Below are positions 2,438 to 2,641 of a stretch of 17,995 nt of DNA, piece after piece. This DNA comes from a virus. The translations under genes were made by a program, and so were the position numbers. Below the pieces are notes generated by a model that saw only the letters and a list, made by a program, of their open reading frames with translations, made no database searches and had not been told where the DNA came from. The stretch is from the UHGV virus genome UHGV-0163678; one strand, given 5' to 3'. Within the stretch, counting starts at the first letter, position 1. Each line of letters starts with the position of its first letter.

Positions 2438-2641
2438 ATGGAACAACGCATAACCCTGAAAGATTATGCAATGCGCTTTGGGCAAACCAAGACAGCTAAA
2501 GATCTCGGTGTATATCAAAGCGCGATCAACAAGGCCATTCATGCAGGCCGAAATATTTTTTTAACTATAAACGCTGATGGAAGCGTTTATGCGGAAGAGG
2601 TAAAGCCCTTCCCAAGTAACAAAAAACAACTGCATAAGTAA
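2438..2641 (+). CDS. cro: Cro repressor
   Basis: 67-aa protein matching lambda Cro over [37 protein letters not shown]...KPFPSNKK. The C-terminal tail (QLHK) differs from the lambda tail I recall (TTA). AGGAGG Shine-Dalgarno upstream. Confidence 0.9.

Follow-up and report, generated by a model that had tools for sequence, protein, structure and literature searches.

A one-nucleotide-shorter A-run gives Cro an altered C terminus in a lambda-immunity prophage of Escherichia coli

Immunity region and cro gene

The stretch of viral DNA analyzed here (UHGV virus genome UHGV-0163678; 17,995 nt; referred to as the window) carries pL/oL, the boxB of nutL, and the start of an N gene at its left end. 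The N gene (positions 319 to 2, minus strand) encodes an arginine-rich N terminus and runs off the window; a homologous 127-aa N gene in loci L005 to L008 has the N_peptide domain (PF25694). The immunity genes and control sites are as follows.

1624 to 2337, minus strand: cI repressor gene of the lambda immunity type, 237 aa (ORF listing; identity to lambda)
2348 to 2364, plus strand: operator oR3 (alignment to lambda oR)
2371 to 2387, plus strand: operator oR2 (alignment to lambda oR)
2395 to 2411, plus strand: operator oR1 (alignment to lambda oR)
2385 to 2390 and 2408 to 2413, plus strand: -35 and -10 elements of promoter pR, TTGACT-17-GATAAT (promoter scan)
2438 to 2641, plus strand: cro, 67-aa allele with K39N and a QLHK tail (ORF; PF09048; PDB match; protein P0002, equal to RefSeq WP_114505447.1)

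Positions 1628 to 2648 are 97.75% identical to lambda, and the cI equivalent in related loci has HTH_3 and Peptidase_S24 domains. The cro gene is the first of the pR operon and diverges from cI across a tripartite oR that, with operator coordinates carried over from the lambda annotation, equals lambda oR except for one base in oR1 (G to A at 2402). The window thus holds a normal lambda-immunity switch of an E. coli lambdoid prophage. Near its center, oR1 reads TACCTCTAGCGGTGATA against TACCTCTGGCGGTGATA in lambda, a change common to phages HK97 and mEp234 and to the prophage of E. coli NCCP 13717. Between cI and pL, the position of lambda rexB/rexA is occupied by two overlapping minus-strand ORFs (821 to 1192 and 1179 to 1616; 123 and 145 aa), for which no significant Pfam or PADLOC family was found, the only matches being sub-threshold, coiled-coil-like ones to XhlA and CorA-like models. 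Related prophages have other cargo at this position (ORFs of 216 and 135 aa, or hicAB in mEp234), and the pair in the window may be an uncharacterized exclusion or defense cassette.

By every feature open to testing, the cro gene belongs to the lambda Cro family. The Pfam Cro profile (PF09048) matched residues 1 to 60 over profile positions 1 to 59 of 59, with 120.4 bits against a cutoff of 32.7. A phmmer search matched PDB entries 1cop, 4cro, and 5cro (E = 1.3e-37), with residues 1 to 63 identical in the printed alignment except for K39N; this match to the structurally solved lambda Cro takes in the recognition helix and the dimer-interface strand. The original prediction that Cro follows lambda up to KPFPSNKK is therefore correct apart from this one substitution (AAG to AAT, window position 2554), which is also found in HK97 and mEp234. 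The N39 form is a very common natural allele of Cro, present on at least 1,000 contigs. Minus-strand ORFs of 49 and 55 aa over 2561 to 2732 were without support and were set aside.

The difference from lambda lies at the 3' end of the gene, where the protein ends in SNKKQLHK according to both the direct read and the ORF listing. The parts of this end are given below.

2618 to 2620, plus strand: codon N61 (direct read)
2621 to 2626, plus strand: homopolymer of six As forming codons K62 (2621 to 2623) and K63 (2624 to 2626); seven As in lambda, HK97, mEp234, and NCCP 13717 (direct read; alignments, variant table, haplotype table)
2627 to 2641, plus strand: frame-shifted tail CAA CTG CAT AAG with a new stop, comprising Q64 (2627 to 2629), L65 (2630 to 2632), H66 (2633 to 2635), K67 (2636 to 2638), and stop TAA (2639 to 2641) (direct read; translations with six, seven, and eight As)
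2630 to 2648, plus strand: conserved 19-nt linker CTGCATAAGTAACACCGCT, holding the end of cro, TAA-N-TAA, and the first bases of boxA, which forms the module joint (alignments to Min27 and lambda)

The pairwise alignment with lambda over the cro 3' end, which had been proposed as a check on the original prediction, was carried out and confirmed both the replacement of TTA by QLHK and its origin in an A-run one base shorter, which shifts the frame of the last codons. The run has six As (6A) in the window and seven (7A) in lambda NC_001416 (locus L001), so that AAC-AAAAAA-CAACTGCATAAGTAA in the window aligns to AAC-AAAAAAA-CAACAGCATAAATAA in lambda. Lambda cro ends AAC AAA AAA ACA ACA GCA TAA (NKKTTA and stop), and the reference accordingly has TTA instead of sharing the altered tail. 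With seven As, the frame reads ACA ACN GCA TAA (TTA and stop); in the window it reads CAA CTG CAT AAG TAA (QLHK and stop), and the last three residues are exchanged for four. The ancestral stop TAA is still there at 2635 to 2637, out of frame.

The TAA-N-TAA at 2635 to 2641 is TAAGTAA in the window and TAAATAA in lambda, and it is kept in the lambda, mEp234, and Min27 linkers. It shuts two of the three frames just ahead of boxA, leaving only a +1 shift that would translate through nutR. In the Stx2 phage Min27, whose cro is unrelated and of the HK022 type, that gene ends at the first TAA of the linker; this frame indicates that the 7A state is ancestral and the 6A state a deletion.

Compared with lambda Cro (NC_001416, 38041 to 38241; RCRO_LAMBD; PDB 5cro and 6cro), the protein of the window thus has the same residues 1 to 63 except K39N, the same PF09048 domain, and the same place opposite cI. 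It differs in the A-run (six As against seven), the tail (QLHK against TTA), the length (67 aa against 66 aa), and residue 39 (N against K), and the nutR-cII module downstream is also different.

Recurrence and authenticity of the shortened run

In this lambda-immunity E. coli prophage, the 6A run of the lambda-type cro gene is likely a real and heritable allele, close to neutral, that arose when slippage removed one A. Replication slippage would drop one A from the A7 run that codes for K62, K63, and the first base of T64. The shifted frame would then run into the second stop of the conserved TAA-N-TAA, with TTA lost and QLHK gained entirely within the disordered C-terminal tail of the protein.

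From each of 76 loci, we took the sequence around the run (190 nt on its left side and 160 nt on its right). Both 6A and 7A members are present in each of five distinct 350-nt flank haplotypes.

HK97-type flank haplotype: 8 loci with 7A, 2 with 6A
L006/20KM2222-type flank haplotype: 4 loci with 7A, 2 with 6A
Window-type flank haplotype: 3 loci with 7A, 2 with 6A
K39-type flank haplotype: 2 loci with 7A, 3 with 6A
L008-type flank haplotype: 1 locus with 7A, 1 with 6A (the 6A member being an error-ridden assembly)

The presence of both run lengths on five flank haplotypes indicates repeated homopolymer slippage. The bases flanking the 6A run at 2611 (10 nt upstream) and 2649 (23 nt downstream) occur in the combinations C/A, T/C, and T/A. 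Judged from these haplotypes, independent 1-nt homopolymer deletions would fit far better than a single origin followed by recombination. Indels arise repeatedly in the A7 run at the 3' end of cro.

The main competitor is an error of sequencing or assembly in the window record, behind which the true prophage would have seven As and TTA. The original prediction had raised this worry and suggested resequencing; the worry is reasonable, as the site is a homopolymer of six or seven bases, a classic setting for sequencing errors, and a sibling haplotype (L011, NCCP 13717) is identical except for the extra A, but it is largely answered by independent assemblies. One of them, L009 (GCA_012978095.1), is 100% identical to window positions 66 to 8641 (8,576 nt), the 6A run included, and is a separate record, since its contig begins 65 nt into the window. 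The exact 67-aa protein (P0002) was found on 85 contigs (163 index blocks), which represent at least five prophage neighborhoods. Nineteen further contigs share the L006 neighborhood, and about 20 of the assemblies are of one prophage type. In the RefSeq complete genome of E. coli 20KM2222, a 6A prophage adjoins ybhC and the protein is annotated as an intact CDS (WP_114505447.1). All other early-region genes of the window are intact, and so are the neighbor genes, including cI, in every 6A locus except the error-ridden L008. Moreover, the +1 errors that a noisy site should also produce are far rarer. Against this evidence, an error in the window record is unlikely, and its 6A allele is very probably real.

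Errors at this site do occur elsewhere, which favors the error explanation to some degree. L008 (CP045140.1) has 6A amid many other indels, and a second 6A allele, with a lambda 3' end and the tail QQHK (P0020; 37 contigs), is mostly found in error-ridden or odd assemblies with many broken genes or artifactual tandem arrays. Some of the 6A alleles in the databases are therefore technical in origin, and the site attracts sequencing errors. The QQHK records include L015/L016 (GCA_020423245.1, JAIOUH010000578.1), L013, L017, and L018; one such contig is a chain of numerous cro-cII fragments in tandem and inverted arrangement, whereas others are lambda-like with split rexA, O, and cII. These contexts look like long-read or 454 artifacts or engineered constructs rather than natural alleles, and the QQHK allele was dropped as further proof of natural recurrence.

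Frequencies were consistently low. In IMG/VR, 3 loci have 6A, 62 have 7A, and none has 8A. The 6A core was found in 1 of 5,426 complete RefSeq E. coli genomes, and the allele is absent from deposited phage genomes. The 7A state in complete E. coli genomes was judged from a search in which 118 genomes covered at least 80% of the query; among the matches listed, 58 of 60 are one base longer than the query segment to which they align. An empty result for a 36-nt 7A query against the same genomes was discarded, being contradicted by the 118-genome search and almost certainly an artifact of low-complexity masking. In the protein collection, N39-QLHK occurs on 85 contigs and K39-QLHK on 23, compared with at least 1,000 contigs for each of the two TTA alleles. 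The rarity of 6A would be expected equally of a neutral change and of a mildly deleterious one that survives in prophages alone. The sole complete RefSeq genome with 6A cro (L010; NZ_CP151050.1) has, at 12806 to 12874, an N gene annotated as an incomplete pseudogene without its N terminus, and this prophage may already be defective for N function.

The opposite change is rarer still. An 8A run gives a 92-aa product whose translation passes through boxA and boxB, and the few contigs on which this product was found come from automated Logan/ENA assemblies. The -1 state is tolerated, as its frame ends at the second TAA of the linker, ahead of boxA. The near-absence of 8A is consistent with selection against translation of nutR, but deletions may also be favored by a mutational or technical bias.

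The QLHK allele is already catalogued with database accessions, and indels in homopolymers are common at the ends of genes. The odd Cro terminus can accordingly be treated as a known minor allele, with no need to flag a pseudogene or a recombination product. WP_114505447.1 (Cro/CI family transcriptional regulator, E. coli 20KM2222) is the identical 67-aa QLHK protein with the same 6A run; unlike the window, the 20KM2222 prophage is a different mosaic (ERF recombinase, DnaB-type helicase module, and other genes at the rex position) on another flank haplotype.

Consequences for Cro and for nutR

The deletion leaves the Pfam Cro domain (residues 1 to 60) unaffected, and in the entry for the Cro-operator complex (6cro) the deposited chain comprises residues 2 to 61 only. 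According to a simulation study, S60 to A66 form a disordered tail in which K62 and K63 touch DNA (PMC12670291). Both lysines are retained in the 6A allele; only residues 64 to 66 are altered, with a histidine and a lysine gained. From the sequence, we infer that the effect on nonspecific DNA affinity or protein stability is small at most. With the domain and the two tail lysines unchanged, Cro should therefore still work as a lytic repressor: the frameshift would leave the folded domain for DNA binding and dimerization as it was, and Cro-QLHK would still bind oR and oL. The QLHK tail is thus probably near-neutral for Cro function.

Immediately downstream of cro lie the nutR site and the cII gene.

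2645 to 2653, plus strand: putative nutR boxA, CGCTATTTT, with a C/A polymorphism at 2649 (pattern search; identical in Min27; homologous position in mEp234)
2676 to 2690, plus strand: nutR boxB hairpin, TCGCT-GACAA-AGCGA (pattern search; MFE and centroid folds; boxB annotated at the homologous position in mEp234)
2776 to 3072, plus strand: cII of the non-lambda (HK97/mEp234/Min27) type, 98 aa (ORF; Pfam PF05269 Phage_CII, E = 6.3e-32; alignments)

The second copy of boxB, in nutL, reads GCTGACAAAGC and lies at 487 to 497 on the minus strand, downstream of pL. A strong hairpin followed by a T-run, resembling an intrinsic terminator, lies on the minus strand at 3021 to 3048 within the 3' end of cII, the position of the lambda oop RNA terminator. 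Across the whole window, no Rfam family scored at or above its gathering threshold.

The putative boxA of the window, CGCTATTTT, differs from CGCTCTTTT in HK97 and mEp234 (annotated as a putative boxA in the latter). The boxA consensus is CGCTCTT(T)A, and the window deviates from it at the base that is changed in lambda boxA16. In the boxA16 mutant (cgcuAuua; sequence in Table 1 of PMC2724277), N activity and NusB:NusE binding are lowered (PMC2724277, PMC2800207). Like boxA16 (Robledo et al. 1990), the window has A at this position; unlike it, the window has a common natural variant, in a different nutR module, and no lesion. Among the 76 loci fetched, position 2649 is A in 33 and C in 43, and the A occurs with both run lengths. 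A lesion of boxA tied to the frameshift was ruled out, since Min27 and the 33 loci have A with either run length.

The deletion does alter the spacing between cro and nutR. From the cro stop to boxA there are 3 nt in the 6A allele versus 7 nt in the 7A allele. A ribosome footprint extends about 10 nt past the A-site codon. A ribosome terminating at the 6A stop would therefore transiently cover most of boxA, compared with only its first bases in the 7A allele, and a covered boxA could slightly delay the loading of NusB/NusE for N antitermination. The stop shift might in this way slightly affect N antitermination at nutR. The lambda mutants described by Olson, Tomich, and Friedman in 1984 reportedly include 1-bp deletions in cro. 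Among the closest known systems are laboratory mutations in the lambda nutR region that alter boxA or where it lies relative to cro translation (Olson, Tomich, and Friedman 1984, J Mol Biol 180:1053); in a comparable way, the 6A deletion moves the cro stop 4 nt nearer to boxA. Translation of cro has also been reported to limit the access of Rho at tR1 (PMC7390762).

A stronger version of this idea would make the A7-to-A6 change a natural attenuator. Occluded NusB/NusE loading at nutR, changed Rho access at tR1, or both would reduce N-dependent expression of cII, O, P, and Q and would bias carriers toward stable, poorly inducible lysogeny. We hold this to be quite improbable. If it were true, the allele would be the natural equivalent of those lambda mutants whose N action is impaired by the position of boxA relative to upstream translation, and any measurable effect of the stop shift on N antitermination would provide a natural test of an old observation of lambda genetics.

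More generally, 6A could be a selected regulatory variant, or a slow contingency tract, that through a cro stop 4 nt nearer to boxA or a basic tail on Cro tunes N antitermination, Rho termination at tR1, or the operator occupancy of Cro and so shifts the lysis-lysogeny set point. Its recurrence on at least four clean backgrounds, its persistence in clonal lineages, and the unequal frequencies of the -1 and +1 states would all agree with such a role. However, runs of six or seven As are short for a contingency locus, and a small minority allele that is absent from isolated phages shows the pattern of a neutral or slightly deleterious change, so that selection for regulation seems an improbable explanation. 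A programmed frameshift or a phase-variable homopolymer was ruled out, because the tract has six or seven As, whereas such tracts typically have eight or more bases and, as their length changes, turn a gene product on or off or give two functional products. Phase variation was further ruled out in that only the last three to four residues change, outside the Pfam domain, and 6A is a small minority.

The shortened run and the module joint

The joint downstream of cro separates the lambda-type immunity region from an nutR-cII module of the HK97/Min27 type. Min27 is identical to the window from CTGCATAAGTAACACCGCTATTTTCAC (window position 2630) onward, and for Stx2 phages the match to the window is confined to positions from about 2630 on; similarity to lambda does not extend beyond CCGCT (2648). 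This makes the shared linker at 2630 to 2648 the joint; the linker consists of the last sense codon or codons of cro, TAA-N-TAA, and the start of boxA. The boundary between immunity region and nutR-cII module can thus be placed within 19 nt that are common to phages with unrelated cro genes.

The A-run sits 4 nt upstream of this linker, and the original prediction had taken the altered tail as a mark of the joint. As to position, it was close, as the immunity module ends within about 30 nt of the change; as to diagnosis, it did not hold, because 7A relatives share the same joint. The same lambda-type cro is joined to the same non-lambda nutR-cII module in HK97, mEp234, and the prophage of E. 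coli NCCP 13717, yet all three have seven As and TTA. The NCCP 13717 prophage (L011) equals the window from 1624 to about 2922 (about 1.3 kb) except for the extra A (variant table). The frameshift is therefore a separate 1-nt deletion and a later event than the joint, neither caused by it nor diagnostic of it. That the joint itself made the tail, as the 4-nt distance and the thickening of differences from lambda over the last ~30 nt of cro might suggest, is highly improbable given the 62 IMG/VR loci and the three relatives above that have the same joint with seven As and the coexistence of 6A and 7A on five otherwise identical flank haplotypes.

Over window positions 2300 to 2800, the closest deposited phages are mEp234 and HK106 (99.0% each) and HK97 (97.8%). 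These are wild lambda-immunity phages with lambda-type cI, cro, and oR, and HK97 (gp51), mEp234, and HK106 share with the window the N39 Cro, the oR1 variant, the linker, the non-lambda nutR with its P22-like GACAA boxB, and cII. Unlike the window, they have seven As, TTA, and boxA CGCTCTTTT.

Beyond cII, the replication module of the window begins with an O-like initiator (3244 to 4104; 286 aa, PF04492). It continues with a 626-aa Toprim_2/AAA_25 primase-helicase-like protein (4212 to 6092), where lambda has P. In sibling prophages whose immunity region is the same, this module is either lambda O/P or an O-like protein with a DnaB helicase.
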